A stretch of DNA of 64,000 bases. It comes from an uncultured bacterium (GTDB taxonomy: Bacteria; Krumholzibacteriota; Krumholzibacteriia; JACNKJ01). Location: positions 2,944,001 through 3,008,000 of the forward strand of contig CAVOFT010000001.1 in assembly GCA_963695095.1 (NCBI GenBank). Direction: 5' to 3'. Positions 17,071-58,184 of the stretch are shown piece by piece. Under the pieces are notes generated by a model. It had not been told where the DNA came from. It did no database searches and saw only the letters and a program-made list of their open reading frames with translations. The translations under genes and the position numbers were made by a program. Within the stretch, counting starts at the first letter, position 1. The number at the start of each line of letters is the position of its first letter.

Positions 17071-17236
17071 GGCACCTCCGTTTCGGGATGCGGGAAAGGC
17101 AGCGGCGGCGCCAAGGCTGGCGCGCCGCGGGGAAGATGGCCTACTCTGGCACGGCAGCGGGCAGAGGGTCAATCACCGGAATTGCCATCCCGAGCGGCGG
17201 CGGCTATGCTGAAGTCGGGTGTCGGAAGGGGGAATC

Positions 17237-19121: not shown

Positions 19122-19312
19122 CCCCACCTCCCGGATAGGTTCCGAAGCTCCTGCTGCTCCATTTTGACAGCGTGGCCGGCGTCGATCAACCCCGATCCGC
19201 GTTGCCGATCTTCGAATCGATGATTCCGGTAAGCGATGCTGAATCCTCCGGCCGTCGGTGGGCATCGAAACCGCACTGGAAGCAAATCCCCGATTCCGAA
19301 CCGGAGGTCCCC

Positions 19313-20387
19313 ATGCGTCGCTCCCTATCGCCCTTGGTGCTGGGCCTGGCCTTGCTCGCCACGGCCAGCCAGGCGATCGCCGTTCCCCGCACCATGCTCT
19401 TCGAGAAGTTCACGAACACCGGTTGACCCGCCTGCGCATTGGCGGAGCCAATCTTCTTGCAGTTCGTCGACGATCACCCGACCGACACGGTGGCCATCCT
19501 CTGGCATGCGAACTTCCCCTACCCGGTCGATCCCTTCTACACCCACAACATCACGGACAACCAGGGCCGCATCGATTGGTATGCGATCGCCAGCGTGCCC
19601 AGGATCAAGGTGGACGGGATCACGTCCTCGACCAGCTACTGCCGGGATGACCACCAGCTACAACAATCGCCTGGCGGTGCCGACCGATCTCAGCCTCGAG
19701 ATCACGGGCAGCTGGGACCCGCAGACCCGCGCCGTCTCCGTGACCGCGACGGCGACGACGACGAGCGCTCTCACCAACGATTACGTGCTGCACATCGTGC
19801 TCACCGAGAGCGAGGTCTACTACGAGGCCACGAACGGCATCGACTGGCACGAGCACACGATGCGCGACGCTCTGCCGAGCTTCGCCGGCTCGCCGGTCAC
19901 CTTCAGCGGCGACTTCCCGCAGACGGCCGTGGTCACGGCCGACTTCACGCTGCCCATGGGCGCGCCGCCGCACGAGTACCGGCCCGAGTTCTGCAAGATC
20001 GTCTGCTTCGTGCAGCAGGTGAGCACGAATTCGGGCTTCCGCGAGGTGCAGCAGGCGGCCGCCGTCGCGCTCACTGATCTTGCGCAGACCCCGGTGGCCG
20101 AACTGGCCGCGGCGCCCAGCCTGGGGCAGCCCTACCCGAACCCCTTCAACCCCGAGACGGCAATTCCCGTGCGGCTCGCCGCACCGGGCGATGTCGCCTT
20201 GCGGATTCTCGACGTGGCTGGACGGCGCCTGCGCACGCTGCAGGAAGGTCATCTGAGCGCCGGCAGCCATCAACTCCACTGGGACGGCCGCGATGACGCG
20301 GGCCGGCCCGTGGGCAGCGGCGTCTACCTGGCCCAGCTCATCCACGCCGGCGGTCGCGAGAGCCGCCGGCTCGTGCTCCTGAAGTAG
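19313..20387 (+). CDS. Putative secreted Omp28-like thioredoxin-fold selenoprotein (U38-P-A-C) with C-terminal FlgD-Ig-like domain; one indel near 19640
   Basis: GGAGG RBS, signal peptide, VPRTMLFEKFTNTG-TGA-PAC continues in frame into ORF 19439; Omp28-like VLTE...HEHTMR and IVCFVQ; C-terminal PNPFNP...LVLLK. Confidence 0.8.
19432..19462 (+). promoter_or_regulatory. Candidate bacterial SECIS element
   Basis: ATTGGC-GGA-GCCAAT hairpin (19438-19452) begins 11 nt after the TGA at 19424-19426; possible lower stem CTGCG/TGCAG. Confidence 0.65.
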
Positions 20388-21431: not shown

Positions 21432-23069
21432 TCAACGCGCGCGGAGGCGAAGCACCTTGACGCCGCCGCGAGCGGCAGCGTCCATTCGCTCCAACAGGTA
21501 GATGCCCGTCGGCGTGGGCCGGCCGCTTTCATCGCGACCGTCCCAGACGCCGCGCCCGCCCGGCAAGGCCAGGCGCCGGACGCAGCGGCCGCGGATATCG
21601 AAGACGGCCACGCTCGCGTCGCCGCCCCGCGCGCCGGGGGCGGCCAGGCGCAGCTCGTTCACGAAGGGCTGCGGCCACGCGACGAGCGCCGGCGCCGCGG
21701 GCAGCGGGTCCACGGCCGTCTCGTCCTCGGCCACCGCCGTGCTAAAGAGCGCCGCCGGCGCGGCGACGGGCCGGCGTTCGACCCTGCCACTGAGGTCTGC
21801 GGCTTCCAGGTAGTACTCGATCTCGGCGCCCGGCGCCTGCGCGGGCAGCCAGGCGCGCAGGCTGTCGCCGCCGATCGGCACGAGGGCGCTCAGCGCAAAG
21901 TCCGTCTCCCCCGCCAGGCGCCAGTGGAGCGCGCAGCCGGCGAGATCCAGCCCCGCCTCGCTGCGGTCGTCGACGAAGGCCGCTACGGGCCAGGCCATGG
22001 CGGCGGGAATCTCGACCGGCGGCGGCGCCGCGTCCACGCGCAGCATGCCGCGGTCGAAGATGCCCATCGCGCGGCAGTGGAGGGCGTCGTAGTAGTACCA
22101 GGAGCCCGTGAAGCCGATCACCTCGTAGCCGGGCATGGCATCGCGGTAGAGCTGCAGCGCCGGCGCATCGCCAGCGCACTGGAAGAGCGGCACCAGCACC
22201 TTCTTGCCGAGGATGAGCGCGTTCGTGTAGGCGGCCACGCCCACCCCGCCGATGGGCCCGCAGTCGACGCGCAGCACGCGCAGGGGATTGCCATAGCAGC
22301 TCGTCAGGCCGCCCAGGAGCGCGGCGTTCTGTTCCACGTAGGGCGCATCCGGGTGGCTCGGGGAGAGCTGCTTGACGATCACCGTCTCCTCGTCGAGGAA
22401 CTTCGCCACGCAGTCGATGTGCTGGATGCCGTTGCCCTCGGTGTTGGGCAGCACGACGAGTTCGTCCACGCCGCACCAGCTCGCCAGTGCGGCGCGGAAG
22501 GCCGCTTCGCTCAGGTGATCGTTCTCGCTGAGCTGGGCCTCGGAGCAGAAGGCGCGGCCATGGCCGTCCCACATGATGTTGCCGCCGGTGAGATAGAAGG
22601 GCGGCTGCCAGAGCGGCTCGCCGCCCAGGTAGGCGGCGAACTGGGCCGGCGTGTCGTCGTCCTGCTCGTAGCCCGTGGTCTCGCGCGGAATCCAGGGATA
22701 GCCATCGAACCAGGGGTCGAGGATGCCCCAATCCCCGCTCCCATCGAAGAGGCACTGCGGGCCCCAGTCCCGGCTCCAGTGCGAGTAGCTGTCGGCGATC
22801 ACCCACCGGACATTGGCCATGTTGACGCCCCAGGCCGTGAAGTTGCCCGTGGCGCCGGCGACCTGGGTGGAAAGGATGACGACGTAGAGCTTCGCGTCCT
22901 CGGCCATCTCGGCAACCAGCGAGCCCGGAATGCCCAGCGGCCAGCGGATCATGACCCCCTCCACCGGCTCCCACTCGGCGCACATGCGCACGGGGCCGGG
23001 CGGCTGGGCCGCGGCGAGGGCGGGCAAGAGCAAGCAGAGCGCAGCGGCGGCGAGACGCTGGCGCGGCAT
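21432..23069 (-). CDS. Secreted agmatine/peptidyl-arginine deiminase-family protein with C-terminal FlgD-like domain
   Basis: AEWEP, WSRDWGP, GGNIMWDG, QHIDC, YTNALI, DALHC motifs; C-terminal WPQPF...WDGRD...GIY. Confidence 0.88.
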   Translation of the reverse strand: MPRQRLAAAALCLLLPALAAAQPPGPVRMCAEWEPVEGVMIRWPLGIPGSLVAEMAEDAKLYVVILSTQVAGATGNFTAWGVNMANVRWVIADSYSHWSRDWGPQCLFDGSGDWGILDPWFDGYPWIPRETTGYEQDDDTPAQFAAYLGGEPLWQPPFYLTGGNIMWDGHGRAFCSEAQLSENDHLSEAAFRAALASWCGVDELVVLPNTEGNGIQHIDCVAKFLDEETVIVKQLSPSHPDAPYVEQNAALLGGLTSCYGNPLRVLRVDCGPIGGVGVAAYTNALILGKKVLVPLFQCAGDAPALQLYRDAMPGYEVIGFTGSWYYYDALHCRAMGIFDRGMLRVDAAPPPVEIPAAMAWPVAAFVDDRSEAGLDLAGCALHWRLAGETDFALSALVPIGGDSLRAWLPAQAPGAEIEYYLEAADLSGRVERRPVAAPAALFSTAVAEDETAVDPLPAAPALVAWPQPFVNELRLAAPGARGGDASVAVFDIRGRCVRRLALPGGRGVWDGRDESGRPTPTGIYLLERMDAAARGGVKVLRLRAR

Positions 23070-23125
23070 GGCAGCCTCCGTTATCATGCGTCGAGCGAGT
23101 ATAGCAGAATCAGGAGTGAGCCACC

Positions 23126-25436: not shown

Positions 25437-26549
25437 ATGTCGACTTCCACGATCGCGGCTGCCTGTGCGCTGCTGCTGGCCGTCCCGGCCGGCGCGGTAG
25501 TCATCCACATTCCGGGCGATCAGCCCACGATCCAGGCGGGCATCGCGGTGGCCGCGCCGGGCGACGTCCTGCTGATCGCTGCGGGCAGCTACACGGAGCC
25601 GATGCAGGAGACCCCTGCCTTCCCGAGCATGCTCGTGCTCCCCGCGGGTGTATCGCTGATCGGCGAGGGCGAGGTGATCCTCGACGCTGCGGGGGCAGGC
25701 CGCCTCATATCCGTCGCGACAGGCTGGCCCGGGCAACCCGTCAATCGGCTCGAGAATCTGGCCCTGCGCCACGGGTTCACGCAGGGCAGCGGGGGCGCCG
25801 TCTACATTCCCTATGCCGCCGTCGACATGCTGAACGTCCGCTTCGAGGACAATGAGGCGCTCGTGGCCGGCGGCGCATTGCGCTGCGACTTCGGCACGAT
25901 CACGATCGAGGACTCGCAATTCACAGGCAACCACGCCGAGGACGGTGGCGCCATCTCGAACGGCAGCAGTGGCTTCAACGTGCGGCGTTGCACCTTCACC
26001 GGGAATGCCGCCTCACCCGGCGGAGGTGGCGCCTTCCACTTCAAAGGCGAGCAGACAAGCCAGATCGAGGAATGCCTGGTAGTTGATTGCCTGAGCCGCT
26101 GGGGCGCCTGGTTCAAGCTGGAGGACCATGTCAGCCTGCTTGTCATCGGCTGCAGCTTCATCGGCCACGGCACGTCCTACCTGAACACCGGCATCCACAT
26201 CTACGATTACTGCTCGCTGACGCTCAACAACTCGATCCTGACCGGAGCCATCGGCCGCGCAATCACCTTCCACCAGAACGTCGCCACGAATTTCGATGAG
26301 TGCAACGACATCTGGGGCAACGGTCTGGATTATCCGACCGAGATCGCCCACTGGCTGGGTACGAACGGCAACTTCAGCGCCGATCCCCTGTTCTGTGCTC
26401 CGAGCGGCAACGACTTCCACCTGAGCACGCTATCGCCTTGCGCGCCCAGCAACAACGACTGCGGTCTGCAGATCGGGGCCTTGCCGGTCGCCTGCGAGAC
26501 CACGGCCTCCGCGAACGCGAGCTGGAGTTCCGTCAAGTCGCTATACTGA
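25437..26549 (+). CDS. Secreted beta-helix protein with C-terminal SWSSVKSLY tag
   Basis: HIPGDQPTIQAGI...GDVLL, GGA repeats, GNFSADPLFC...SPCAP. Confidence 0.85.
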   Translation: MSTSTIAAACALLLAVPAGAVVIHIPGDQPTIQAGIAVAAPGDVLLIAAGSYTEPMQETPAFPSMLVLPAGVSLIGEGEVILDAAGAGRLISVATGWPGQPVNRLENLALRHGFTQGSGGAVYIPYAAVDMLNVRFEDNEALVAGGALRCDFGTITIEDSQFTGNHAEDGGAISNGSSGFNVRRCTFTGNAASPGGGGAFHFKGEQTSQIEECLVVDCLSRWGAWFKLEDHVSLLVIGCSFIGHGTSYLNTGIHIYDYCSLTLNNSILTGAIGRAITFHQNVATNFDECNDIWGNGLDYPTEIAHWLGTNGNFSADPLFCAPSGNDFHLSTLSPCAPSNNDCGLQIGALPVACETTASANASWSSVKSLY

Positions 26550-26644
26550 TTCGACGCATGGCCAGCGGTCACCCGAAATCGCGTGCTGCACGCGCCGACG
26601 CCGGCTGCTATAATCGTATGCAGCTACTGCTCGGGAGGTGTGTG

Positions 26645-27712
26645 ATGACTCGTTCCATCCTGGCCCTGGCCTGCTTGTTCGCCATTTTCGTGGCCGGTGC
26701 CGCCTCGGCGGCCATCCTCAACGTCCCCGGCGACTACGCGACGATCCAGGCGGCCATCGATGCCGCGGCTGTGGGCGACGAGATCGTCATCGCCGCCGGC
26801 AGCTATGCGAGCGAGGCCTTCATCGACCACGGCGGCTTCACGATCCGCGGCACGGGCGAAGTGATCCTGGGTCCGAGCAGCGGCGGCATCGCCTTCATCT
26901 GCTCGCTGGACGCCGACTACCTGCCCGTCATCTTCGAGCACCTCACCTTCGAGGGCTTCGCCATCGGCATCTCCTATGACATGGATTTCGCAGCGGAGAT
27001 CCGCGACTGCGTCTTCCGCCTGAACGAGAACGGGATCCACGGCTGCGGCGACGGGCCTCTGATCCTGCGCGACTGCCTGTTCGAGGACAACCATGCCACC
27101 TGGGCCGGCGGCGCGATCAGCAGCTGCGGCGCCGTGCTGGACGTGGCCGACTGCGTCTTCCGGAACAACACGGCAGGCGTCATGGGCGGCGCCATCTTCT
27201 CGGACACGCCCTTCGGCCCGCGCAGCTTCTCGAACTGCCTCTTCGTCGGCAACGACGCGCCCAAGGGCGCCGCCGTGCAGGTGGAGTTCGGCGGGCCCGT
27301 GGACTTCAGTCGCTGCACCTTCCACGCAAACGGCCGCAGCGGCGCCGCCGTGCTCAACGTCGAGATGGCCTCCAGCACCCTGAACCTGAGCCGCTGCATC
27401 GTGACGGGCAGCCCGGGCAGCGCCTTCTCCTGCACCGATGGCGGCGTGCTGAACATCAGCTGCACGGATGCCTGGAACAACGCGGAGGGCGACTGGACCG
27501 ACTGCGCCGCCGGCCAGCTCGGCGTGGACGGCAACTTCAGCGCCGATCCGCTCTACTGCGATCTCGCCAACGGCGACTTCGCCTTCGACGCCGACTCGCC
27601 CTGCGCGCCGGGCGGGAATGCCTGCGGCGTCACGATCGGCGCCTACGGCGTGGGCTGCGGCCTCACGGCCGCCGAGGAGAACAGCTTCAGCGCGGTGAAG
27701 AGCCTCTACTAG
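26645..27712 (+). CDS. Secreted beta-helix protein with C-terminal SFSAVKSLY tag
   Basis: GGAGG RBS, signal, NVPGDYATIQAAI, GNFSADPLYC...SPCAP. Confidence 0.85.
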   Translation: MTRSILALACLFAIFVAGAASAAILNVPGDYATIQAAIDAAAVGDEIVIAAGSYASEAFIDHGGFTIRGTGEVILGPSSGGIAFICSLDADYLPVIFEHLTFEGFAIGISYDMDFAAEIRDCVFRLNENGIHGCGDGPLILRDCLFEDNHATWAGGAISSCGAVLDVADCVFRNNTAGVMGGAIFSDTPFGPRSFSNCLFVGNDAPKGAAVQVEFGGPVDFSRCTFHANGRSGAAVLNVEMASSTLNLSRCIVTGSPGSAFSCTDGGVLNISCTDAWNNAEGDWTDCAAGQLGVDGNFSADPLYCDLANGDFAFDADSPCAPGGNACGVTIGAYGVGCGLTAAEENSFSAVKSLY

Positions 27713-27769: not shown

Positions 27770-28840
27770 GTGCGCGTTCACTTGTTTGCGCTCTACGGCA
27801 TCCTGGCATTGGCCTCGGCCGCAGCTGCGGCGGAGATCCACGTGCCGGGGGATCAGCCCACGATCCAGGCGGCCATCGATGCTGCGGCCCCTGGCGATGA
27901 GATCGTCATCGCCGCGGGCACCTACAGCGTGCCCGCGCCACACATCCTTCCCCCCGGTGGCCTCCGCTTCCGCGGAACGGGCGAGGTCCAGCTGTCCGGC
28001 AGCACCGGCGCCTTCTTTGAAGTCATCGATCCGCAGAACCTGGATCTGTTCCGCTTCGAGAATCTGCGCTTCCTGGGCAACCCCGTCGGCATCCGCACGC
28101 CCGTCCCCGGCAATCCCTTTCCGGAGACCCGCCTCGAGGTGGAGGACTGCGCCTTCGTCGACAACGGCGTGGGGATCAGCGCGCGCAACGCCGGGCTGTT
28201 CAATCTGAGGAATTGCCGCTTCGAGGGCGGCAGCACCGGCGTCTATCTGCTCTTCGCCTGGATGTTCGCCGAGGATTGCGTCTTCATCGGCCCCGAAACC
28301 GGCATCCGCGCCGACGACGGCCTGGCGGACCGGGTGGTCGAGCGCTGCCTCTTCGTGGACTGCCACGGTTTCTACGGTGCCGTGGCGATCGATGTGCCCG
28401 CCCAGTTCGCGCTCATCCAGTGCACTTTCGACCGCTGCGGCGCGGCGAACGGCGCGGCGATCTCTTCGATCGCGGCGGCGACCATCGTCCTCGACCGCTG
28501 CATCGTGGTCAATGGCCCCGGCCTGGCCTTCGGCTGCATTGGCGGCTTCCCCAATCTTTTCATCATCACCTGCTCCGACCTGTGGAACAACGCCGGCGGC
28601 AACTGGCACGCTTGCGCCTACGGTGGACCCGAGGAGAACGGCAACTTCTCGGCGGATCCGCTGTTCTGCGCCACCGCTCGCGACGACTACTCCATTGACG
28701 CCGACTCGCCCTGCGCCGCGGCCGGCAACACCTGCGAGGTCATCGTCGGCGCCTTCGACGTAGCTTGTGGCACCACCGGCGTCGGGGAGCTGCCACCAGG
28801 GGACAACACCAGCTTCAGCGCAGTGAAGAGCTTCTACTAG
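27770..28840 (+). CDS. Secreted beta-helix protein with C-terminal SFSAVKSFY tag
   Basis: GGAGG RBS, HVPGDQPTIQAAI, GNFSADPLFC...SPC. Confidence 0.85.
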   Translation: MRVHLFALYGILALASAAAAAEIHVPGDQPTIQAAIDAAAPGDEIVIAAGTYSVPAPHILPPGGLRFRGTGEVQLSGSTGAFFEVIDPQNLDLFRFENLRFLGNPVGIRTPVPGNPFPETRLEVEDCAFVDNGVGISARNAGLFNLRNCRFEGGSTGVYLLFAWMFAEDCVFIGPETGIRADDGLADRVVERCLFVDCHGFYGAVAIDVPAQFALIQCTFDRCGAANGAAISSIAAATIVLDRCIVVNGPGLAFGCIGGFPNLFIITCSDLWNNAGGNWHACAYGGPEENGNFSADPLFCATARDDYSIDADSPCAAAGNTCEVIVGAFDVACGTTGVGELPPGDNTSFSAVKSFY

Positions 28841-38247: not shown

Positions 38248-38865
38248 CTAGTAGAGCGCCTTGATGCTGCTGATCGTCGCGCCCTCGACCGGGATGTAGC
38301 CGCCCGGGAACTCGCAGAAGATGCCTTCGCGAGTCGGAGTCTCCACCACCAGGTTGTCCCAGTAAATGGTGGAGCCGGGATCCGTGTAGGTGCGCACCTC
38401 GACGACCAGGCCCGTATGGCCGCCGGTCATGGTCCAGGTGTAGCTGGTGACGTCCCAGCCTAGGCCGAGGCCGTAGTCGCTGTTGCCGCTGGCGCTGCCG
38501 TTGTAGGCGTTCACGTCCGTCGGGCTGTCGTTGTAGTGGCCCCAGATGCGGCCGCTCGGCGAAACAGCGGGCGTGTCGTCGTAGCGGGCGATGCTGGCCG
38601 TCACGACGTCGCCATCCATCAAGCCACGGATCCAGCAGACATAGCCCTGAGGCGTGCTGGTGTAATCGTCCACGGTCTTCAAGCTGTACATGCCAGCGTA
38701 GACGGGCTCGGGCGAGGTCACGTTGTAGGTGAGCATTCCGGGAGGCGAAAGCGGAAAGACGGACAGCAGGGTGCTCGTCCCATCCTCCCAGCCGAAGGTG
38801 AAGGTCTCCGCGGCGGCGGGGACCGCCAAGGCGACCAGAGCCAGAAGTAGAAGCAGTTTCTTCAT
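38248..38865 (-). CDS. Secreted hypothetical protein with C-terminal TISSIKALY tag
   Basis: MKKLLLLLALVALAVPAAA signal; jelly-roll-like sequence ending IYWDNL; ends PVEGATISSIKALY. Confidence 0.8.
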   Translation of the reverse strand: MKKLLLLLALVALAVPAAAETFTFGWEDGTSTLLSVFPLSPPGMLTYNVTSPEPVYAGMYSLKTVDDYTSTPQGYVCWIRGLMDGDVVTASIARYDDTPAVSPSGRIWGHYNDSPTDVNAYNGSASGNSDYGLGLGWDVTSYTWTMTGGHTGLVVEVRTYTDPGSTIYWDNLVVETPTREGIFCEFPGGYIPVEGATISSIKALY

Positions 38866-39020
38866 GCCAATCCCCCTAGGGTGCGATGCTTGATGTTCCA
38901 ACGGGTACGCGCGTAGTCCCGCCGCGCCCGCCCTCCGGGCCGGCCCTGGCGGAACGCTTCATCATACCATCTTCCATACCGGAGCGACAAGTCCGGCTAA
39001 GTGAAGTTTTCGCAAAGGGC

Positions 39021-40218
39021 CTACTTGATGACGCCCAAATCCTTGCCCACGGCCGTGAAGGCCGCGATCGCCTTGTCCAGCTGCGCCCGGTCGTGGGCCG
39101 CGGAGATCTGCACGCGGATGCGGGCCTTGCCCTGGGGCACCACGGGGTAGAAGAAGCCGATCACGTAGATGCCCTTGGCCAGCATGGCCTCGGCGAACTG
39201 CTGGCTGAGCTTGGCGTCCCCCAGCATGATGGGCACGATGGGGTGCACGCCGGGCACGATGTCGAAGCCGGCGGCGGTCATCTTCTCGCGGAAGTACTTG
39301 GTGTTGGCCTCGGTCTTGTCGCGGAGCGCCGTGCTGGCCATGATGATCTCGAGCGTCTTGAGCGCCGCGGCGACGATGGCCGGCGCCACGGTGTTCGAGA
39401 ACAGGTAGGGCCGGCACCGCTGGCGCAGCAGGTCGATGATCTCCTGGCGCCCGGTGGTGAAGCCGCCCGAGGCGCCGCCCAGGGCCTTGCCGAGGGTGGA
39501 GGTGATCACGTCCACGCGGCCGAGCACGCCGCAGTGCTCCACGCGTGCCGCGGCCGGTCGGGCCGAAGAAGCCGGTGGCGTGGGAGTCGTCGACCATGAC
39601 CATGGCGTCGTACTTGTCGGCGAGGTCGCAGATCTTGTCGAGCTGGGCGACGGTGCCGTCCATCGAGAAGACGCCGTCGGTGGCGATCATGATGCGCTTG
39701 GCGCCGGCCGCCTTGGCCTCGTCCAGCTGGGCCTTCAGGTCGGCCATGTCGTTGTTCGCGTAGCGGTAGCGCTTGGCCTTGCAGAGGCGGATGCCGTCGA
39801 TGATCGAGGCGTGGTTGAGCGCGTCGCTGATGATCGCGTCCTCTTCGCCCAGCAGCACCTCGAAGAGGCCGCCGTTGGCGTCGAAGCAGGCGGCGTAGAG
39901 GATGGTGTCCTCGGTGCCGAAGAACTCGGCGATCTTCGCCTCGAGCTCCTTGTGGATGTCCTGGGTGCCGCAGATGAAGCGCACCGAGGACAGGCCGAAG
40001 CCGTGCGTGTCCATGCCGGCCTTGGCCGCCTCGATGATCTCGGGGTTGTTGGACAGGCCCAGGTAGTTGTTCGCGCAGAAGTTCAGCACCTCGACGCCCG
40101 TGTTGAGCTTGATGGAGGCCTTCTGGTCGCTGACGATGATCCGCTCCCGCTTGTAGAGCCCCGCGGCCTCGATCTCGGCCAGCGTGGTCTTCAGCTCGGT
40201 GCGCACTTTGTCGAACAT
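39021..40218 (-). CDS. kbl: Glycine C-acetyltransferase (2-amino-3-ketobutyrate CoA ligase); frameshift near 39542
   Basis: [53 protein letters not shown]. Confidence 0.95.
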
Positions 40219-40268
40219 GGAATCCTCCTGCCCGCTACGCGCGGTGCGTCTTGAGATAGAGGGAGCGC

Positions 40269-41405: not shown

Positions 41406-41440
41406 CGAAAACGGGGAGGAGACCCGCAGGTCCCCTCCCC
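41406..41440 (-). terminator. Rho-independent terminator
   Basis: GGGGAG-GAGACC / GGTC-CCCTCCCC stem followed by GTTTTCG on the minus strand. Confidence 0.65.
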
Positions 41441-41507
41441 GATGCAGGCGCTTCTCCGCGTCCCCTCGCGCGCGAAACAACGCGCGCTTGGAGACGCGAA
41501 GGCGCGC

Positions 41508-43517
41508 CTACTTCAGCAAGAGCATCTTGCGGGTCTGCTCCCCGTCCGCGTGCTGGAGGCGGTAGAAGTACATGCCCGTCGCCAGGGTGTTGCCCGCGTC
41601 GTCGCGGCCGTTCCAGATGATCTCCTGCGGTCCCGCCGTCTGCGGCCCGTCCACAAGGGTCGCCACGCGGCGGCCGCTGGCGTCGAAGACCAGCAGCTTC
41701 GCGTCGCCCGCGCTGGGCAGCGTGAAGCGGATCGTCGTCTTCGGGTTGAAGGGGTTGGGCAGGTTCTGCTCGAGGCGCAGCGCGAAGGCTGCCGGCTCCT
41801 CGGGCACGCCCGTCAGATCCGGGTTCAGCCAGTTCATCGCCCGCTGCATGAGCAGCGCCCGATCCGCGGCGTTGTTGATCGCCTCGAAGCCGAAGCCCAG
41901 GTAGACGACGCGATAGGTGCCCGTGTCCGCGGCAACGGCGCCATTGTAGGTGGTGCCGTACCTGAAGATCACGTGCGCTGCCGCATCATAGGCGCTGATC
42001 GCGTCCGGGTACTCCTGGTTGTTCGCGCCGTCGCCGCCGCTGATCGTCAGCATCATGCCGTCGCTGATCGGATCGCCGGCCACGCCGTCCAGGGTGTAGT
42101 CGTTGGTGTCATCGAGCACGAAGTTGGCGTGCAGGTACTGGCGATACCAGGCCAGCACTGAGGACCCCAGCTGCGTCGCCAGCTCCCAGCCGACGTCCTG
42201 CCCGCTCACGAGGAGCGCGCCGCCGCCGTCCAGGTAGGCGCCGAGGGCGGCCCGGTCGGAGGCGTCCAGGGTCGGGAAGGCGAAGCCGACGTTCCAGACG
42301 ACGACGTCGAAGTTCGACAGCAGCGCGCCGGTCAGGGCCGCGCCGCTGCGATCCCAGATCGCGAAGCTGCGGCCGGTGCTGCCCAGCGCGGGGCCGTAGT
42401 AGCTCGACTCGAAGGTCTCGCCGCCGTCGTCGTCCACCAGCAGCACCTGCGTATCCGCCGTGATCGCCGAGTAGCGCAGCCGGCGATCGTCGGTCCGGTT
42501 GCCCTGGCTGTGGATGACCAGCTCCGCGGCGCCGCCGCCCGTTGCGCCGGTCTCGATGACGACGTTGTAGGTGGCCCGCTCGCCGGGCGCCAGCGTCACC
42601 TGGAGGGCGCTGTAGTTGCTGACGCCATCGGTGATGTAGGCGCTCCAGCTGCCGGGCAGGTCGCCGGTATCCAGGCTGAGATCGTAGGTGTCGGTGGCGT
42701 CGCCCACGTTGAACAGGGCGAAGTCGCCGAACTCATGGCTGCCGCTGGCCACCGCCACCCGGTCGCCCAGCGAGTAGTAGCGGAAGGCCCAGTCGCCGGT
42801 GGGCACCGACGTGCAGGACTGCTGCATCGCCTTGTCGCTGTCGCGCTGCAGGAAGGCGACGACGCGCATGTTGGCGGGGTTCCACAGCGGATCCATCGTG
42901 AAGTTGCCGGTCACGGTCTGCGTCTGCCCGGCCGTGTTGATGGTGACGGGCACGTCCGCGACGATGTCGCGCAGGACGTCCTGCTCGTAATCGCCGCTGT
43001 AGAGGCAGTCGTTCTCGATGATGCACACACGCACGCGCAGCGTGCTGATGTCGGCGACATCGTCCTCGAGATCGACCTTCACAGTGGCATAGGGGCTGGG
43101 GCCGAAGCTGTAGCCCGTGACTTCCATCGCCCAGGGCGTGGCGTCGGCGATGTGCGCCTGCACGATGGCATCGTAGGGCCCGCCGTCGATGACGTCGGTA
43201 CCGGCACCCACGAGCACCTCGGTGCCCATCCAGATCAGGGTGGGGAAGGCACTGACGCCGTAGTAGCTGAGACGCGCCATGCCGTCAGGGCAGCTGCCGA
43301 GACCGCCGCTTGAGCTGCTCAGGTAGCGAATGGAATTGAACTCTGTCCCGTCGTAACGGCCCGACATCACGGCCAGGCCTGCGTATGCACGCGGACAGTA
43401 GACTCACCAAGTCGCCGAGCCCATCTCGGCGATGACGGTGCGGGGCACCAGGGCGAAGGCCTGCGCGCTGATGAGCATCAGCAGCGCGGCGGCCAGGGTG
43501 ATCTGGAGACGCTTCAT
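41508..43517 (-). CDS. Putative secreted Omp28-like thioredoxin-fold selenoprotein (W-U38-V-Y-C), 669 aa, with C-terminal FlgD-Ig-like domain
   Basis: GGGAGG RBS, ATG 43517, signal peptide, VPRTVIAEMGSATW-TGA(43406-43404)-VYCP in frame with ORF 41508-43370; YGVSAFPT cis-Pro-like motif, VVAFLQ, PNPFNP...MLLLK. Confidence 0.85.
43378..43394 (-). promoter_or_regulatory. Candidate bacterial SECIS element
   Basis: Minus strand CC-GCGT-GCAT-ACGC-A-GG hairpin; core stem starts 11 nt after the in-frame TGA. Confidence 0.55.
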
Positions 43518-43675
43518 GGAACCCTCCCATGGGCAGTGAAGGAGCCTGACCTGCGCGCGCAGGCCGACCTGAGATCAGGATAATCCTACCATGTATGGCC
43601 GGCCGGCGCCCGTGGAAAGGTCAGTCGCACTGACTTTCAAAAACCGGCAACTAACCGCCCAAGCGCTCGAACGGG

Positions 43676-44011
43676 CTAGTGCGGCGAGCCGGCGGCGCAG
43701 TCCGGGCAGGGGCAGAGGGCCCGCAGGTGCTCGAAGGTGAAGATGCCCGTGTTGTGCCCGTCGCTGAAGACGGGCTGCACGGCATAGTGCCCCACGAGGG
43801 CCAGGCTCACCGGATGCACATCGGCGGCCACCCGCTCGGGATCGAGCAGGGGTGAGCCGCTCACCTCGTCCACGCAGCCGGCGCAGCGGCAGGCCAGGCG
43901 CAGCAGGCGCGCCGGATAGACGCTGCGGTGCCCGTCCGCCCAGTCGATGGCGACGTCGTGCTCGCCGTGGCGGCTGATCGATGTCGGACGCGTGCGGGGG
44001 TCGTCGGCCAT
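43676..44011 (-). CDS. DUF971 / gamma-butyrobetaine hydroxylase-like N-terminal domain protein
   Basis: WADGHRSVY, LRLACRCAGC, VGHYAV...FSDGHNTGIF. Confidence 0.9.
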   Translation of the reverse strand: MADDPRTRPTSISRHGEHDVAIDWADGHRSVYPARLLRLACRCAGCVDEVSGSPLLDPERVAADVHPVSLALVGHYAVQPVFSDGHNTGIFTFEHLRALCPCPDCAAGSPH

Positions 44012-44064
44012 GCCCACCTCTCTGCAGCCCGCTGGGCGCATTTGCACCCGCCCCCGGGGGCGGG

Positions 44065-45172
44065 CTAGAAGCTCAGCTTGATCTCGCCCCCCAGCTCGCC
44101 GCTGTGCGTGCGGATGCTGATCTGCGCCGCGAGCTGCGCGGCCAGGTCGCGGAAGGCCTTGCCGTGCGGGCTCTCGGCGTCCATGGCGCTGGGCAGCCCG
44201 CGGTCGCCGCGCTCGCGGATGCCGCCGGCCAGGGGCAGCTCGCCGAGGAAGGCGCAGGCCCATGGCCGCCGCCGCGCGCTTCGTGCCGCCGTTGCCGAAG
44301 ATGTCGTCGCGCTCGCCGCAGTGCGGGCAGGCGTAGTAGCTCATGTTCTCGACGAGGCCGAGCACGGGCGTCTTGAGCATCTCGAACAGCGTGATCGCCT
44401 TCTGCGCCACCTTGAGCGCCACGTCCTGCGGCGTGGAGACCACCACCGCGCCCGTGAGGGCCAGCTTCTGGCAAAGGCTGAGCTGCACGTCGCCGGTGCC
44501 GGGCGGCAGGTCGACGATGAGGTAGTCCAGCTCGCCCCACTCCACGTTGCCGAGGAACTCGTCCAGCGCCTTCGCGAGCATGGGCCCGCGCCAGACCACG
44601 GCCTGCTTCTCGTCGATGAAGAAGCCCATGGAGATCACCTTCACGCCGTGCCGGGTGACGGGCACGATGCGGCCCCCGCTCACCTGCGGCGCCTCGGTGA
44701 TGCCCATCAGCGCCGGCACGCTGGGCCCGTAGATGTCCGCGTCCATCAGCCCGACGCGCGCGCCCTGGGCGGCGAGCGCGACGGCCAGGTTCACGGCCAC
44801 GGTGCTCTTGCCCACGCCGCCCTTGCCGCTGGCCACGGGCACGATGTGCTTGACCCCCGGCACCTGCCCGCCCACCGGGCCCGTGCCGGCGGCCGTGCCC
44901 GCGCTCGGCCCCTGATGCCCGCGCACCTGGGCGGTCATCTTGATGTCCACGGACTCCACGCCGGGCACCTCGCTCACGGCGTTCATGGCCGCGTTCTTCA
45001 TCAGGTCCTTCACGGGGCAAGCCGGCGTGGTCAGCTCGATCGAGAAGGCGACGCGCCCGCCGGCGATCTTCATGTCCTTGATGAAGCCCAGGCTGACGAT
45101 GTCCTGCCTCAGGTCCGGGTCTTCCACGTGGCGCAGGGCGGCCAGCACCGCCTCTTCAGTGACCTTGCTCAT
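44065..45172 (-). CDS. mrp: Mrp/NBP35 (ApbC) Fe-S cluster carrier ATPase; frameshift near 44250
   Basis: [55 protein letters not shown]; corrected frame ends GEIKLSF-TAG. Confidence 0.92.
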
Positions 45173-45260
45173 GGCTTCTCCTTCGTCGGGTCCGGGCTGC
45201 CGGCGGCCGCCCTGCGGCTGCCAACGGCCCTTGCGAAAGTGGACGGCGCAGGCGCGCCCG

Positions 45261-47718
45261 TCAAGGCCGACCGGCCTCGCCGGCGCGGCCGGCCCCGCCG
45301 GCCCCGCTCGCGAAGAGCGCGGCATGGCGCAGCGGCGCGGCCGGCGCTCCCGTCTCGACGCGCAGGCCGGCCGTGAGGGTGAGCGCGGCCGGGGCCAGGC
45401 AGCGCTGATCGTCGCAGGCCTGATAGCTCAGGCGCAGGCGCAGCTCGCGCGGGCCGGGCGCGGCCGCCGGCCCGGCCGCGAGCAGGGCCCGGAAGCGCAG
45501 CTCCCCCACCGGCGCCGGCAGGCGCTGCGCTTCGCCGAGGCTGAGGCCCTCGCCGCGCGATGAGCTCGAGGCGCGGCGGGGCCAGCGCCTCGCCACCGGC
45601 GCCGCCCTCCAGGTGCCAGCCCGCGTCGGCCACGGCCCGCAGCAGGAGCGGCAGGCTCTCGCCGGGCGCCAGGCTCTCGCGGCCCAGGTAGAGCTCGGCG
45701 GCGACGGGCGCCTGGCGCCGGGCGTCCTCGGGCGGGCCCTCCGCGCCGGCCAGCGGCGCGAGGCCGCGCGCCGCGCCCGCGAGGTAGTCGGCCAGCGCGG
45801 CCTGCAGGCTGAGCGTGCCCCGCGGCGCCCGCGCCATCACCGGCTGGAATACCGTGAGGGCGGCCCGCGCCGCCTCGCGGTAGCGCGCCACGCCGCTCGC
45901 CTCGGCCAGGCGCAGCAGGACCTGCGCCGCCACGCCGTTGCCGCTGGGCAAGGCGCCGTCGTAGGGATCCCGGCGGCGGAGGAAGAGGACCTCCTCGTCG
46001 TCGGCCGTGAAGAAGAAGCCGGCGCCCGCGGGGTCGGCGAAGTGCGCGAGCAGCGTGTCGGCCTGCTCGCGCGCCGCGGCGAGCCAGCGCGCGTCGCCCG
46101 TGGCCTCGTGGAGCTCGAGCAGGCCGAGGGCGAGGAAGGCGTGGTCGTCCAGGTTGGCGGCCAGGCGCGCCTCGCCCTCGCGCCAGACGGCGAGCAGGCG
46201 GCCGTCCGCGCGCAGCGAGCCGAGGACGAAGTCCGCCGTCCGGGCGGCGGCCGCTATCCAGACGGGCTCATCGAGCAGGCGGCCCGCGCGGGCGAGGCCC
46301 GCGATCATGAGGCCGTTCCAGGCGGTGAGCACCTTGTCGTCGCGCTCGGGCCAGACGCGCTGGCCGTCGCGGGCCGCGCGCAGCGTCTCGCGCCAGGCGG
46401 CGAGAGCGTCGAGCGCGACGCCCTCGCGGGCGGCGGCCTCCGCGAGCGGCTGCGGCAGGTAGAGGATGCTCTCGCCCGTCGAGCGGCCGCTGGCTTCCTC
46501 GCGGAAATTGCCCGCGGCTTCCACGCCGTAGATGCGGGCGAAGCGCGCGGCGTCCGCCTCGCCGAGCAGCGCGGCCAGCTCGGCCGGGCGCCACAGGTAG
46601 AAGAGGCCCTCCTCGCCCTCGCTGTCGGCGTCCAGGGCGGCGTGGAAGCCGCCGGCGGCGTCGCGCATGTCGCGCAGGGCCCAGCCCGCGATGCCGCGGG
46701 CCACCGCGGCGAGATCCGCGCGGCCGGTGCGCCTGGCCGCCTCGGCGTAGACGGGCAGCAGGAGCGCGTTGTCGTAGAGCATCTTCTCGAAGTGGGGCAG
46801 GAGCCAGCGGGCGTCGGTGCTGTAGCGGTGAAAGCCGCCGCCGAGCTGGTCGTGGATGCCGCCGGCGGCCATGGCCGCCAGCGTGCGCGTCACGAGGTCG
46901 AGCAGGGCGGGATCGCCCGAGCGGGCGTGCTCGGCGAGCAGCAGGGCGAGGGCCTGGTGCGGCGGAAACTTGGGCGCGCTGCCGAAGCCGCCCTGGAGGG
47001 AGTCGAAATCGGCGGCGAGCTGGCCGAGGGCCGCGTCCACCAGCTCGCGGCCCGGCTCGCTGCCGCCGGCGGGCAGCTCGCCCTGGGCGACGATGGCCGC
47101 GGCGACGGCCTCGGCCTGCTTGAGCACCTCGTCGCGCCGCTCGTCCCAGACCTGGCGCAGGTCGACGAGCATCGTCTTGAAGCCGGGCTGGCGCGGGCCG
47201 CGGTCCTCGCGCGGAAAGTAGGTACCGCAGAACCAGGGCTTGCCGTCGGGGGTGAGCCAGAGCGAGTTGGGCCAGCCGCCGCGGCCGGTGAAGAGCTGCG
47301 TGGCCGTCATCATCACGGCGTCCAGGTCGGGAAGCTCCTCGCGGTCCACCTTCACGCAGACGTAGTGCGCGTTCATCAGGGCCGCCGTCTCGGCGTCCTC
47401 GAAGGACTCGTGCTCCATGACGTGGCACCAGTGGCAGGTGGAGTAGCCGACCGAGAGGAAGATGGGCCTGTCCTCGCGCGCGGCGCGGGCCAGCGCCTCC
47501 TCGCCCCAGGGATACCAGTCCACCGGGTTGCGCGCGTGCTGCCGCAGGTAGGGGCTGGACTCGAAGACGAGGCGGTTGAAGTCGGGGCCGCCGTCGGCGG
47601 GCAGGGCGGCGATGGCCGCGGCGTCGGGCAGGGGCTGGCGCATGGCGGGCTCCGTCTCCGCGCTCGCCGCGGCGGGCGCGGCGAGGCTCAGGGCGAGGAG
47701 TAGCGTTGAGAAGCGCAC
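45261..47718 (-). CDS. YyaL/DUF255 (SPATA20-like) thioredoxin + alpha/alpha-barrel protein with C-terminal DsbD-N-like domain; frameshift near 45560
   Basis: [53 protein letters not shown]-terminal YQACDDQRC in ORF 45261-45596. Confidence 0.9.
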
Positions 47719-50965: not shown

Positions 50966-51044
50966 GTCGTGGGTTGCTTGGCCGCACGCGTAGGAGGCCG
51001 TGGTGCTGGGTTTTCTCGCCGATAGCTGTTGCAGTCCGACGCTG

Positions 51045-51774
51045 ATGCCGGCCGGGCCGAGCTTCGACCCGTGGCTGCTCCTCGGCACGGGGCTGACGAT
51101 CAGCCTCGGCCACTGCATCGGCATGTGCGGGCCGCTGGTGGGCGCCGTGGCGATGGCGCAGCCCGAGGGGGCGCGCAGCGCGCGGCGGCTCGTCCCCGGC
51201 TTCCTGCTCTATCATCTGGGACGCGTGGGCGCCTACGCGCTCATCGGGCTGGCCCTGGGCCTGGTGGGCTCGGCCGCGGACCTGGCCGGGCAGGGCCAGT
51301 GGCTGCGCGGCGGGCTGTCGCTGGCGGTGGGTCTGGCGATGGCGCTGCTCGGGCTCGGCCTCGGGCGGCTGGCTGCCGGCGCGGCACTGGCCGGGCGGCG
51401 CGCGGCTCACGGGCCTTGTAGTGACGCGCTTCCGGGCCTTGATCGGGCGGGGCGGCTTGCTTGGGAAGTTGGGCCTGGGCGTCGCCAACGGCTTCCTGCC
51501 CTGCGGGCCGGTCTACGTGGTGGCGCTCGGGGCGATGGCCGCGGGCAGTCCCTGGCGCGGCGCGGGGGCCATGCTGCTCTTCGGCGCGGGGACGGTGCCG
51601 GTGATGCTGGCCTTGTCCCTCGGCGTCGGGCGCCTGAGCCCGCGCGTGCAGGGGCGCTTCAATCGCGTCGCGGCCGTGCTGGTGCTGCTGATCGCGGCGC
51701 AGCTCCTGCTGCGGGGCGCGGCGGCGTTTGGGTGGGTGGGGCATTTGAGGTTCGGGGAGGTTGTGGTTTACTAG
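51045..51774 (+). CDS. DsbD_2 / TauE-SafE-like membrane protein (often cbb3-oxidase associated); frameshifted near 51400
   Basis: HCIGMCGP, YHLGRV.AY, NGFLPCGPVY, FGAGTVP. Confidence 0.85.
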
Positions 51775-55796: not shown

Positions 55797-58184
55797 GTGA
55801 TGTGCGGACGGTCGCTTGCGGCATTCTCTATCCTGATGGTTCTTCCGATATCGGCTGCAACCGCAGCCACGATCCACGTCCCCGCTGACCAGCCCACGAT
55901 CCAGGCGGGTGTCGATGCCGCGGCGCCGGGGGACACGGTCCAGCTTGCCGCGATGGTCTTCACCGGCCCGGGCAACACCGACCTCGGCTTCGGGGGCAAG
56001 GACATCGTCCTGCGCGGAGCGGCGCCGCCCGACAGCTCGGCCATCGATGGCGAAGGTCAGCACCAGGGCTTCTACCTCCATCAGGGCGAGACGGCCGCGG
56101 CCCGCATCGAGCGCCTCACCCTCAAGAACATCGATGGCTACGCCTTTCACGCCTACCAGGCCTCGGCCACGCTCGCCGACATCCGCCTCTTCGATTGCGT
56201 GCACGGCGTGGCCTTCCACACCTCGACGAGCGCGGTGCACGGCCTGCTCTGCGTGCGCACCTCCGATGCGCTAGCGGTCTACGCGGCGAGCGCGAGCGCC
56301 ACGGATGTCGACGTGCGCGAGGGCGGCCTCTACAACGCGCTGGACATCAACTCGGGTGCGAGCCTGACCGTGGACGGCCTGCGCGTCACCGGCAGTTACG
56401 CGCGCTATGGCGTGGTGGACTGCGCGGGCACCCTGGTCCTCCGCAACGCCTACTTCAGCGGCAACCGGCTGAGCCCGCTCAATCCGCGGGCTGTGATCTA
56501 CGGCCACGGGGACGGCGCCGCGCTCGACCTGCAATGGGTGACCATCGTCGACAACGCCACCGACGGCATTCGCACCGAGGACGCCTGTGCGCTCACCGCT
56601 CGCAACGTGACGATCGCGCGCACGGGGGGCGAGGGCTTCGAGCTCAGCGCCGAGGGCTCGGCCGACATCGCCCAGGCGATCGTCGCCTTCTCGACGAAGG
56701 TCGGCATCTTCGCCTGGCCGGGCGGCACGGTCACGCTGGCCTGCTCGGATGTCTACGGCAACGCCCTCGGCGACTTCGGCGGCGCGCTCGGCGATCCCAC
56801 CGGCACCGACGGCATGATCAAGGCCGAACCCATGTTCTGTCAGCTCGGCGGCCCCGACCAGCCGCCCACCCTGAGCGTGAACTCGCCCTGCGCCCCGGCC
56901 AACAGCGACTGCGGGCTACTCATGGGCGCCCACGGCACGGCCTGCGATCTCGTGATGGTCACCGTCTCGGGCACCGTCCTCGACCCGGGCAACCAGCCGG
57001 TGGCGGGGGTCGCCATCGAGGGCTTCTACGACCCCTTGCTGACGGACTCCGCGGGGCACTACGCCTTCGACACCGTCCAGGGCTGGACCGGCGTGCTGCA
57101 TCCGGTGCTCATGAGCCTGCACTTCGACCCGGTGGAGCGCCTCATCGGTCCGCTCATCGTCGACTTGCCGAACCAGGACTTCCTCGCCTATGCGCAGACG
57201 GCCATCCGCGTGCCGCAGGACTTCGCCACCCTGGCCGAGGCGCTGGAGTTCGCCCTCGACGGCGACACCGTGCTGGTGGCGCCCGGCGTCTACACGGGGC
57301 CGGCCAACCGCAACCTCAGTTGCGGCGGCAAGGCGATCGCGGTGCTGGGGACAGGGAGCGCCGGGGCCACCATCATCGACTGCCAGGGCCAGGGCCGCGC
57401 ATTCACTCTGCTCGACGGGGAATCGCCGGCCACGCTCATCGGCGGCCTGACGATCCGCAACGGCCACAGCTCGGCCGCGCTCACGCCGCCGTACAAGGGC
57501 GGCGGCGGCATCTACGTGCAGGACGGCTCGCCCACACTCCGCGACCTTGTCATCGAGGACTGCCTCAGCGACGAGGCCGGGGGCGGGCTCCTGCTGAAAA
57601 GCTCGTCCGCCCTCGTGCAGCGCGTGCACTGCCGCGGCAACGAGGCCCCCGGCCTGGAGGGCATCGGCGGCGGCGCCTTCGCGATCGGCGGCGCCCCCAC
57701 CTTCCGCGACTGCCTGTTCACGGACAACTTCGCCTTCCGCTACGGCGGCGGCCTGCACATCGCCAACGGCACGATCCGGGTCGAAGGCTGCACGGTGGTC
57801 GGCAACACGGCGGGCTGGAGCGGCGGCGGCATCAGCAGCCACAAGTCGAGCAATCCGCCGCAGCTCAGCATCACGCGCAGCCTGATCGCCGACAACCACG
57901 CCACGAGCGGTGGCGCGCTCTTCAACCACGCCCTCTGGCCGGCGCCCGCCTACGACTGCTGCCTCTTCTGGGGCAACGACTCGCCACGCGTCTGGGGCAG
58001 CATCAACGATCCCGTCGGGACGAACGGCAATTTCGCGGCCGATCCCCTGCTCTGCGATCCCGGCGGCGGCGACTTCGGCCTGCAGGCGGGATCGCCCTGC
58101 CTGCCCGAGAACAATGGCTGCGCTGTCCTGATCGGCGCTCTCGGCCAGGGCTGCGACACGCTGCGCGCGGGAGGTCAGCGATGA
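55797..58184 (+). CDS. Secreted tandem beta-helix protein (two modules with an Ig-like linker)
   Basis: HVPADQPTIQ and RVPQDFATL modules, each ending in (E/D)PxxC...SPC.P.N..C. Confidence 0.85.
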   Translation: MMCGRSLAAFSILMVLPISAATAATIHVPADQPTIQAGVDAAAPGDTVQLAAMVFTGPGNTDLGFGGKDIVLRGAAPPDSSAIDGEGQHQGFYLHQGETAAARIERLTLKNIDGYAFHAYQASATLADIRLFDCVHGVAFHTSTSAVHGLLCVRTSDALAVYAASASATDVDVREGGLYNALDINSGASLTVDGLRVTGSYARYGVVDCAGTLVLRNAYFSGNRLSPLNPRAVIYGHGDGAALDLQWVTIVDNATDGIRTEDACALTARNVTIARTGGEGFELSAEGSADIAQAIVAFSTKVGIFAWPGGTVTLACSDVYGNALGDFGGALGDPTGTDGMIKAEPMFCQLGGPDQPPTLSVNSPCAPANSDCGLLMGAHGTACDLVMVTVSGTVLDPGNQPVAGVAIEGFYDPLLTDSAGHYAFDTVQGWTGVLHPVLMSLHFDPVERLIGPLIVDLPNQDFLAYAQTAIRVPQDFATLAEALEFALDGDTVLVAPGVYTGPANRNLSCGGKAIAVLGTGSAGATIIDCQGQGRAFTLLDGESPATLIGGLTIRNGHSSAALTPPYKGGGGIYVQDGSPTLRDLVIEDCLSDEAGGGLLLKSSSALVQRVHCRGNEAPGLEGIGGGAFAIGGAPTFRDCLFTDNFAFRYGGGLHIANGTIRVEGCTVVGNTAGWSGGGISSHKSSNPPQLSITRSLIADNHATSGGALFNHALWPAPAYDCCLFWGNDSPRVWGSINDPVGTNGNFAADPLLCDPGGGDFGLQAGSPCLPENNGCAVLIGALGQGCDTLRAGGQR

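Follow-up and report, generated by a model that had tools for sequence, protein, structure and literature searches.

The gene at 43517-41508 on the minus strand of the DNA analysed here (64,000 nucleotides of an uncultured bacterium of the Krumholzibacteriota, GenBank assembly GCA_963695095.1, contig CAVOFT010000001.1; hereafter the window) very probably encodes an exported selenoprotein of 669 residues, an HBP35-like thiol-disulfide oxidoreductase that uses the type IX secretion system (T9SS). Translation would start at the ATG at 43517, and the UGA at codon 38 would be decoded as selenocysteine (Sec, U) by SelA, SelB, SelD and tRNA-Sec, aided by an mRNA hairpin 11 nt downstream. The signal peptide would carry the protein across the inner membrane, and the C-terminal FlgD-Ig-like domain would mark it as T9SS cargo bound for the cell surface or the outside of the cell. 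The working part would be the HBP35-like module, in which U38 attacks in place of the cysteine (Cys) of a CxxC motif and C41 resolves; this chemistry would make the protein a thiol-disulfide (selenylsulfide) oxidoreductase that works outside the cytoplasm. If so, selenium would be used by these bacteria for redox reactions outside the cell, possibly to fold or isomerize their numerous Cys-rich T9SS cargo proteins once exported, or to detoxify oxidants or metalloids at the surface.

Codon 38 and its reading frame

Under translation table 11, the open reading frame (ORF) at 41508-43370 has 620 residues from a GTG start, begins MMSGRYDG and has no signal peptide, as the original prediction had stated. 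The minus-strand ATG at 43517 continues in frame through a single TGA (43406-43404, codon 38) into this ORF to give the 669 residues, which confirms the proposed join to a start codon with a ribosome-binding site and a signal peptide. The N-terminus of the read-through protein is MKRLQITLAAALLMLISAQAFA-LVPRTVIAEMGSATW, followed by the TGA codon and then by VYCPRAYAGLAVMSGRYDG, with the motif GSATW-U-VYCP. The signal peptide, which was assigned by eye, is present only with the TGA read through, and residues 2-16 of this leader form a helix in the AlphaFold model. A strong terminator-like hairpin (41441-41412) lies 67 nt 3' of the stop codon and a consensus scan gave a second (43659-43646) 3' of the upstream gene. 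Because these hairpins flank it, the gene would seem to be a transcription unit of its own. The coordinates of the features are collected in Table 1.

A six-frame search of 201 genomes of the window's phylum, using the first 240 residues as the query, found relatives in 84 genomes belonging to only two families (f1, 10 of 11 genomes; f4, 73 of 87), while the same search returned none from the 102 genomes of the other seven families. Exactly one TGA is present in 44 of the 46 places with E ≤ 2.9e-30, and none in the remaining two. In a codon alignment of the 30 best loci of the phylum, the window's own included, 28 loci have TGA opposite codon 38 and two have TGC (Cys), a distribution that goes beyond chance; the original prediction of a TGA at a conserved catalytic Cys site is thus borne out. 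The hydrophobic leader is conserved in 30/30 loci, and VPR, E31 and the A-T-W ahead of the TGA are conserved as protein, which speaks against a start downstream of the TGA, the outcome that had been named as fatal to the prediction. Counted from the aligned ATG, which a GGAGG-like motif precedes in most cases, the complete orthologs have 660-673 residues, and the full-length ones are 41-80% identical to the window's protein from end to end. A Cys-codon pattern scan of 185,579 species genomes returned 31 Cys-form loci, in records labelled Candidatus Eisenbacteria, Krumholzibacteriia, Holophagae, WOR-3, Thermoanaerobaculales, Phycisphaerae, Thermoplasmata and Bacteroidales. The coding sequence is conserved both before and after the TGA, and nothing but Cys replaces it; this pattern argues for a Sec codon and against a stop, an error or a pseudogene; codon 38 is almost certainly Sec.

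The machinery for this is encoded in the same genome (3.64 Mb in two contigs). The match for tRNA-Sec scored 71.9 bits (cut-off 47), and selB (336.8 bits; cut-off 242), selA (429.8; 268) and selD (342.4; 125) are likewise above their cut-offs, so the lack of tRNA-Sec or SelB that would have told against the prediction does not apply. The reading frame, the conservation of the TGA with its Cys alternates and the Sec machinery are all shown by this analysis; from them we infer that Sec is in fact inserted at codon 38. The selD of this genome (G000:C1:69142-70107) has one in-frame TGA of its own, and its SelD is probably itself a selenoprotein. A pattern search for the selD Sec motif, meant for a comparison of RNA elements within the genome, gave no match. 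A global reassignment of TGA was ruled out, as TGA is the commonest stop in the window and closes 18 of the 31 ORFs taken as genes.

The codon recurs in other branches of the family. A paralog on the plus strand of the window (Table 1) has its TGA at 19424-19426 and keeps the spacing V24-P25-R26-T27...E31...U38-x-x-C41 of the 669-residue protein, with the motif NTG-U-PAC, so that the identical motif position noted earlier is correct. A second, larger subfamily in f4 (∼840-1100 residues, mostly 880-920; ∼30% identity) has TGA at the aligned position, within G-U-P-Y-C-P-S-A-V, in 20/20 fetched members (e.g. L097-L116), which were chosen from rows flagged as having one TGA, so that the count gives the location of the TGA and not its frequency. 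Intact, TGA-bearing copies of the short type to which the paralog belongs (∼350-380 residues) are present in two genomes of the window's genus, as four members with the motifs NAG-U-PYCP, NCG-U-PGCP, NTS-U-PYCP and NTA-U-AACG. Since the TGA is kept in 28/30 orthologs, in 20/20 examined members of the larger subfamily and in these four short-type members, the sequences point to a selenium-dependent redox function outside the cytoplasm in an uncultured candidate phylum.

Hairpins downstream of the TGA

Selenocysteine insertion sequence (SECIS) elements in bacteria are recognized by a stem-loop shortly 3' of the UGA with a G in the apical loop, and the spacing in Escherichia coli fdhF is eleven nucleotides. 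The GCGT-GCAT-ACGC hairpin of the original prediction is present at 43392-43381, 11 nt (GTCTACTGTCC) after the TGA, and the predicted counterpart in the paralog was found as well, as a 6-bp hairpin (AUUGGC-GGA-GCCAAU) behind an 11-nt spacer. The first hairpin of the window's gene has the core GCGU-GCAU-ACGC and can be extended to 43396-43377; a second, with an 8-bp stem and the loop CGUGAU, follows at 43379-43358. The larger subfamily has UUCCGC-GGUC-GCGGGA 11 nt after the TGA; 15 of the 20 members have six perfect pairs and the GGUC loop and the other five have a variant with a 5-bp stem and a 5-nt loop, the closing pair varying between U-A, C-G and G-C. In each of the three subfamilies, then, a short hairpin with a G-first loop stands exactly 11 nt after the UGA, and we consider this shared placement to be the best independent support for a putative SECIS element.

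Pairs were counted in 28 Sec-form orthologs over 72 gap-free columns for two named structures. For the two hairpins together (columns 21-24/29-32 and 34-41/48-55) 77.1% of the cells are paired, compared with 33.6-42.6% when the 3' partners are slid along the alignment, and for the extended first hairpin (columns 17-24/29-36) the values are 79.0% and 25.0-54.0%. The covariation score of the two-hairpin structure is 0.255 (≤ 0.141 for the slid versions), and six pairs change on both sides; pair 24:29, for example, is C-G in ten sequences, U-A in six and G-C in three, and is unpaired in nine. G43 and T44 in the loop of the second hairpin are invariant in the 28 Sec forms. In the Cys forms the corresponding pairing is ∼34%, 43% and 46% for the three helices, a figure that refers to the first 17 of the 31 Cys loci, the other 14, with short or weak matches, having been left out. 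We consider the covariation to give moderate support to the hairpin, and it is very likely that a SECIS element lies downstream of the TGA, where either of the two hairpins could be the site of SelB binding.

Fold, redox site and route of secretion

The AlphaFold models, computed from 25- and 30-sequence alignments, have a mean predicted local distance difference test (pLDDT) value of 86.0 and a predicted template modelling (pTM) score of 0.72 for the whole protein, and 89.4 and 0.84, respectively, for residues 1-245. The fold, the place of the motif within it, the family of the sorting domain and the T9SS genes come directly from the computations; the export route, the redox activity and a substrate among other secreted proteins or small oxidants are what we infer from these. 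Residues 22-238 are most similar to HBP35, the 35-kDa hemin-binding protein of Porphyromonas gingivalis (PDB entry 5y1a, chain A), with a Z-score of 22.1 for the N-terminal model, a root-mean-square deviation (r.m.s.d.) of 2.4 Å over 205 residues and a sequence identity of ∼16-17%. The full model gives a Z-score of 22.9, with r.m.s.d. values of 2.2-2.4 Å across the two models, and Foldseek returned 5y1a with an E-value of 1.7e-9. HBP35 ranks well ahead of the unrelated structures below it. The next structure match is Atu2684 (2axo; Z = 17.5); thioredoxins match residues 25-125 with Z-scores of 7-8.7, and the Omp28 domain 2r2c (chain B) matches residues 127-238 (Z = 8.2, r.m.s.d. 1.9 Å over 95 residues). 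The label 'Omp28-like' given originally thus holds for the β-sandwich of residues 127-238, but the N-terminal module as a whole is best matched by HBP35; thioredoxin fold and Omp28-like sandwich together are modelled as an HBP35-like module.

U38 and C41 are at the N-terminus of helix 41-54 in the models, and Cys41 is invariant in alignments A2 and A3. The A3 profile aligns ATW-U-GYCP with AEW-C-GY-C-P of HBP35 (E = 0.0035), and also aligns with CPHC of the Methanocaldococcus (M. jannaschii) thioredoxin 1fo5. E31 and P92 are invariant as well (P92 in 30 sequences, directly before strand 93-96), and they may correspond to the buried acid and the cis-proline of thioredoxins. Recombinant HBP35 reduces insulin faster than E. 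coli thioredoxin and a C48S/C51S double mutant is inactive, an hbp35 plasmid complements an E. coli dsbA mutant, and hemin binding maps to residues 135-344 (PMC2907840); secretion of HBP35 is reported to depend on the Por secretion system/T9SS (PMC3120885). Because the UxxC motif aligns with the CxxC of HBP35 that is needed for insulin reduction, U38 occupies the place of the attacking Cys of a proven redox site. The two proteins share the thioredoxin fold and the Omp28-like sandwich, the redox motif (AEW-C-GY-C-P and ATW-U-VY-C-P, respectively), the signal peptide and the T9SS C-terminal domain, whereas HBP35 has Cys instead of Sec, is 344 residues long, lacks the Ig-like and GATase1-like (class I glutamine-amidotransferase-like) domains and comes from another phylum. 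HBP35 also supplies an experimental frame for the present protein, in insulin reduction, dsbA complementation and Cys/Ser variants.

The GATase1-like domain (residues 355-567) matches 2gk3 (Z = 17.1), 4jqs (16.2), 3rht (16.2) and the GH42 entry 5xb7 (17.8). No invariant Cys or His was found among the A2 columns of this domain; a catalytic glutaminase role was ruled out for want of these residues and of a nucleophile, and the domain probably serves in binding or as a scaffold.

The tail of the protein matches TIGR04183 with 30.9 bits (cut-off 23) and PF13860 with 40.6 bits (cut-off 27). The search for T9SS machinery covered PorU and SprA, and the genome encodes both (PorU 438.4 bits, cut-off 420; SprA 423.7 bits, cut-off 200), together with 148 FlgD_ig matches that mostly lie at the end of a long frame. 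On the basis of these matches we take the FlgD-Ig-like domain to serve a large set of cargo proteins in this lineage as their T9SS sorting domain. With the signal peptide in 30/30 loci, the thioredoxin-fold motif, the T9SS-type tail, PorU and SprA, the family of exported, FlgD-tailed UxxC selenoproteins that had been proposed is supported in its core. Four other ORFs of the window (17219-17887, 26300-27712 and 27770-28840 on the plus strand and 38248-38901 on the minus strand) share a different C-terminal motif, SFSA[VI]KS[LF]Y or ISSIKALY, directly before the stop, and two of the four are Cys-rich (4.2%) β-helix proteins; this tail, distinct from FlgD-Ig, may be a second sorting or β-signal-like tail.

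Selenoproteins with a thioredoxin-fold UxxC motif are known in bacteria (thioredoxin-, DsbA/DsbE- and peroxiredoxin-like) and have features in common with the present protein: Sec in place of the N-terminal Cys at the start of helix 1, Cys homologs, a SECIS element just downstream and truncated gene calls. They differ in being cytoplasmic or periplasmic, compared with the predicted location of the 669-residue protein at the cell surface or outside the cell, and in lacking its Omp28 sandwich, Ig-like and GATase1-like domains and T9SS tail. The closest curated model is NCBIfam NF045500, 'Omp28-related selenoprotein' (Omp28_seleno, 377 positions), which likewise describes an Omp28-related protein with Sec and is the best NCBIfam match of the N-terminal module (residues 28-235 to profile positions 41-264, E = 1.3e-13). 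Its length is like that of the paralog-type proteins (∼350-380 residues), whereas the 669-residue protein has ∼330 extra residues containing the Ig-like and GATase1-like domains. The N-terminal frame of the paralog scores 19.6 bits against this model. NF045500 exceeded its cut-off in none of 121 genomes of the phylum (best score 71.8 bits), none of 301 genomes of the phylum of Parabacteroides and none of four genomes holding Cys forms. Thus, the kind is known to curators while the 669-residue family lies outside the model, and the NCBI pipeline would not name the protein. The solved Omp28 domain of P. gingivalis (PF11551, 2r2c) matches the sandwich of residues 127-238, with a weak Pfam match at 174-234, but covers one of the five domains and not the Sec motif.

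The concept of an Omp28-related selenoprotein is thus already curated, and the 669-residue protein is an unannotated addition to it. The searchable literature, covered by title and the opening of the abstract and with subscription journals and the published selenoproteome surveys excluded, gave no selenoprotein linked to Omp28, HBP35 or T9SS, and nothing that joins Eisenbacteria to selenocysteine. Our tentative suggestion is that this could be the first described selenoprotein that is T9SS cargo, with an HBP35-like oxidoreductase presenting Sec at its catalytic site, either on the cell surface or after release, in a family of several subfamilies (∼370, 670 and 900 residues), sometimes in tandem, across the candidate phylum. 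A Sec active site on a surface protein routed through T9SS would be unusual. The understanding of selenoproteins is unchanged by this: a well-supported family and a location are added, with no conceptual surprise.

Competing readings, annotation and surroundings

Three other accounts of the TGA were considered. It is very improbable that it is an ordinary stop, with the real product being the 619/620-residue protein from just downstream and the 37 upstream codons being a small ORF or untranslated. TGA is the commonest stop in the window, and 12 of 14 database homologs, the window's own included, are called from after the TGA, as this account would have it, but the 37 codons are conserved in 30/30 loci as a signal peptide and first thioredoxin-fold strand, and Cys stands at the codon within one continuous frame in two orthologs and in many distant relatives. 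The truncated product would be left without signal peptide, strand 1 and active-site residue, and yet with a secretion tail, and inspection revealed no GGAGG-like motif 5' of the downstream GTG/ATG. We give even less credence to a TGA that arose from faulty sequencing or assembly, or from a mutation that recently inactivated the gene and left a pseudogene. Frame changes do occur in the same 64 kb, in the paralog (∼19640-19650), in kbl (∼39545) and in a DsbD_2 gene (∼51300-51420); set against these, 27 other genomes, assembled independently, have the identical TGA at this codon, as do all 20 of the examined members of the second subfamily, and the remaining frame is intact and, as given above, 41-80% identical to full-length orthologs. 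The account that deserves somewhat more attention, while still improbable, has another residue inserted at the UGA in place of Sec or alongside it, for example Cys by the Sec pathway at low selenium or tryptophan by a near-cognate tRNA, and the protein acting in practice as a CxxC thioredoxin. Relatives use Cys at the position of codon 38, and the Sec machinery can misinsert Cys at UGA in other organisms; however, complete and specific Sec machinery is encoded, the selD of the genome offers another candidate selenoprotein, the hairpin at the canonical spacing is conserved, and a product with Cys would leave little reason for 28 of 30 lineages to retain TGA instead of TGC or TGT.

Several observations weigh against the selenoprotein reading itself, most of them concerning the RNA element. 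The single-sequence folding energy is unexceptional against shuffled sequences (z = 0.07 and -0.16), RNAalifold returned no consensus structure for the 28 Sec forms, and 21-24% of the pair cells are unpaired in these orthologs; the case for the hairpin is a comparative one. Most of the pairs survive in the two Cys forms that are closest (3/4 in each, plus 7/8 and 5/8), so part of the pairing may follow from the codons of C-P-R-A-x-A-G; as pairing is retained in close Cys forms and lower in others, divergence and codon constraints confound the contrast between Sec and Cys forms. The two adjacent hairpins also compete for the role of SelB site. The covariation of the hairpin, which had been put forward as a check, is seen in part: 77-79% of cells are paired, against 25-54% for slid partners, with compensatory changes, but the conservation is only moderate and lacks an RNAalifold consensus. 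The complete lack of hairpin conservation that would have told against the prediction does not apply. On the protein side, NF045500 is matched with 51.1 bits against a curated cut-off of 200 and Pfam Omp28 (PF11551) with 22.7 bits against a gathering score of 34.9, and no reductant or oxidant partner was identified for an extracytoplasmic UxxC protein. Finally, at least three other genes in the window change frame, which means that single-base errors occur in the assembly. The gene for the 669-residue selenoprotein is itself unbroken, and its TGA is confirmed by independent assemblies.

The paralog is the first of the broken genes. It leaves its frame (+1) near 19640-19650, after VDGITSSTSY and within tgccgggatgacc, and continues in the frame of the ORF at 19236-20387, which carries the Omp28 (41.6 bits, above the gathering score) and FlgD_ig matches. 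The orthologs in the two genomes of the same genus have a single frame with the TGA at the same place, and the break may reflect an indel of the assembly or a gene that is truly a pseudogene. The sequencing reads of nine runs shared ≤ 0.10 of the sampled words, and four runs left 19528-19650 uncovered. The argument that two independent TGAs oppose error or pseudogenization carries one caveat: the paralog has its TGA at codon 38, but it is frameshifted and not intact as assembled. The second break is in kbl (a 2-amino-3-ketobutyrate CoA ligase-like aminotransferase; 39021-40240, minus strand), which is split into two frames where ggcacgCgtggagcac reads as one C more than expected. The third is in a DsbD_2 (CcdA-like) membrane protein (50994-51774, plus strand), of which the C-terminal 117 residues alone are called (Pfam positions 118-197 of 199). 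That three genes are broken within 64 kb, a housekeeping gene among them, suggests indels in the assembly and not decay.

Table 1. Features of the selenoprotein gene, its product and its paralog, in window coordinates.
Feature	Position	Strand	Basis or remark
Shine-Dalgarno-like GGGAGGG	43522..43528	-	Direct reading; 4 nt 5' of ATG 43517
ATG 43517 and predicted signal peptide (residues 1-22, MKRLQITLAAALLMLISAQAFA; A-F-A cleavage-type end)	43452..43517	-	Inspection
In-frame TGA, codon 38 (U38), almost certainly read as Sec	43404..43406	-	Ortholog alignment, Sec machinery
TGT, Cys41, predicted resolving Cys of U-x-x-C	43395..43397	-	Alignments; second Cys of HBP35 and of M. jannaschii thioredoxin
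Candidate SECIS region	43358..43396	-	Two hairpins; pair counts on 28 Sec-form orthologs
Thioredoxin-fold domain (residues 24-125)	43143..43448	-	Models, structure matches, A3 profile
Omp28-like β-sandwich (residues 127-238)	42804..43139	-	HBP35 and Omp28 structure matches
Second all-β, Ig-like sandwich (residues 245-352)	42462..42785	-	Secondary structure of the model
GATase1/ThuA-like α/β domain (residues 355-567)	41817..42455	-	Structure matches
FlgD-Ig-like/T9SS type A sorting domain (residues 587-667; β-sandwich tail)	41517..41759	-	PF13860, TIGR04183
TAG stop codon	41508..41510	-	End of the 669-residue frame
Terminator-like hairpin (13-bp stem, 10 G-C pairs) followed by TTTTCGTT	41412..41441	-	Consensus scan
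Paralog: signal peptide, TGA codon 38 (19424-19426), Omp28 domain, FlgD-Ig tail	19313..20387	+	Sequence, Pfam

The public record of the family is affected by the TGA. A profile of the N-terminal module matched 5526 cluster representatives at E ≤ 0.001, 1703 at 1e-10 and 73 at 1e-30. The pattern E-x(5-7)-CxxC is present in 114 of the best 150 representatives, mostly as W-C-x-Y-C-P; 30 of the 36 without CxxC are calls whose first residues align at query positions 39-107, and some of these shortened calls start with MYCP, MFCP or VYCP, that is, directly after the missing residue. The 12 of 14 homologs that start after the TGA come from a word-indexed database and include a 619-residue call for the window's own gene. 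Gene callers read the TGA as a stop, so that public records hold a headless version of the family. As these records lack the signal peptide and the active site and carry the name 'hypothetical protein' or 'T9SS type A sorting domain-containing protein', function and location are lost from them. We regard this as a real, conserved and publicly misannotated selenoprotein.

The genome of the window also has a Cys paralog (L055; G000:C1, ∼1717600-1719400, frame 2) with the motif NTG-C-VPCP, in which FSNTG-C-VPCP stands behind an N-terminal extension; the adjacent frame has a VDD.D/GATase1-like region that resembles the middle of the Sec protein. Relatives carry TGA-bearing copies in tandem, three in G069:C7:309959-315085 and pairs in G006:C3:118834-120806 and G097:C2:1054629-1057610, and these arrays indicate a local expansion of the family.

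Immediately upstream of the selenoprotein gene, a 549-residue ORF (43676-45325, minus strand) combines an Mrp/ApbC-like P-loop NTPase (ParA, FeS_assembly_P) with a DUF971/GBBH-like_N domain. The two domains are joined by an Arg/Pro-rich, seemingly out-of-frame stretch and are separate pieces in relatives; the ORF may represent two genes or another frame error. The Mrp/ApbC-like gene was rejected as a functional partner: it is kept in 7/29 other loci, all from the same genome family, which we read as synteny among kin. An 849-residue Thioredox_DsbH (DUF255) protein is encoded at 45169-47718 (minus strand), ∼1.7 kb upstream of the selenoprotein gene, and a homolog of the Porphyromonas-type peptidyl-arginine deiminase at 21432-23087 (minus strand). 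Cys-rich secreted proteins, the possible substrates named in the original prediction, do occur in the window: β-helix proteins with 2.8-4.2% Cys are encoded at 6993-10079, 26300-27712, 27770-28840 and 55797-58184.

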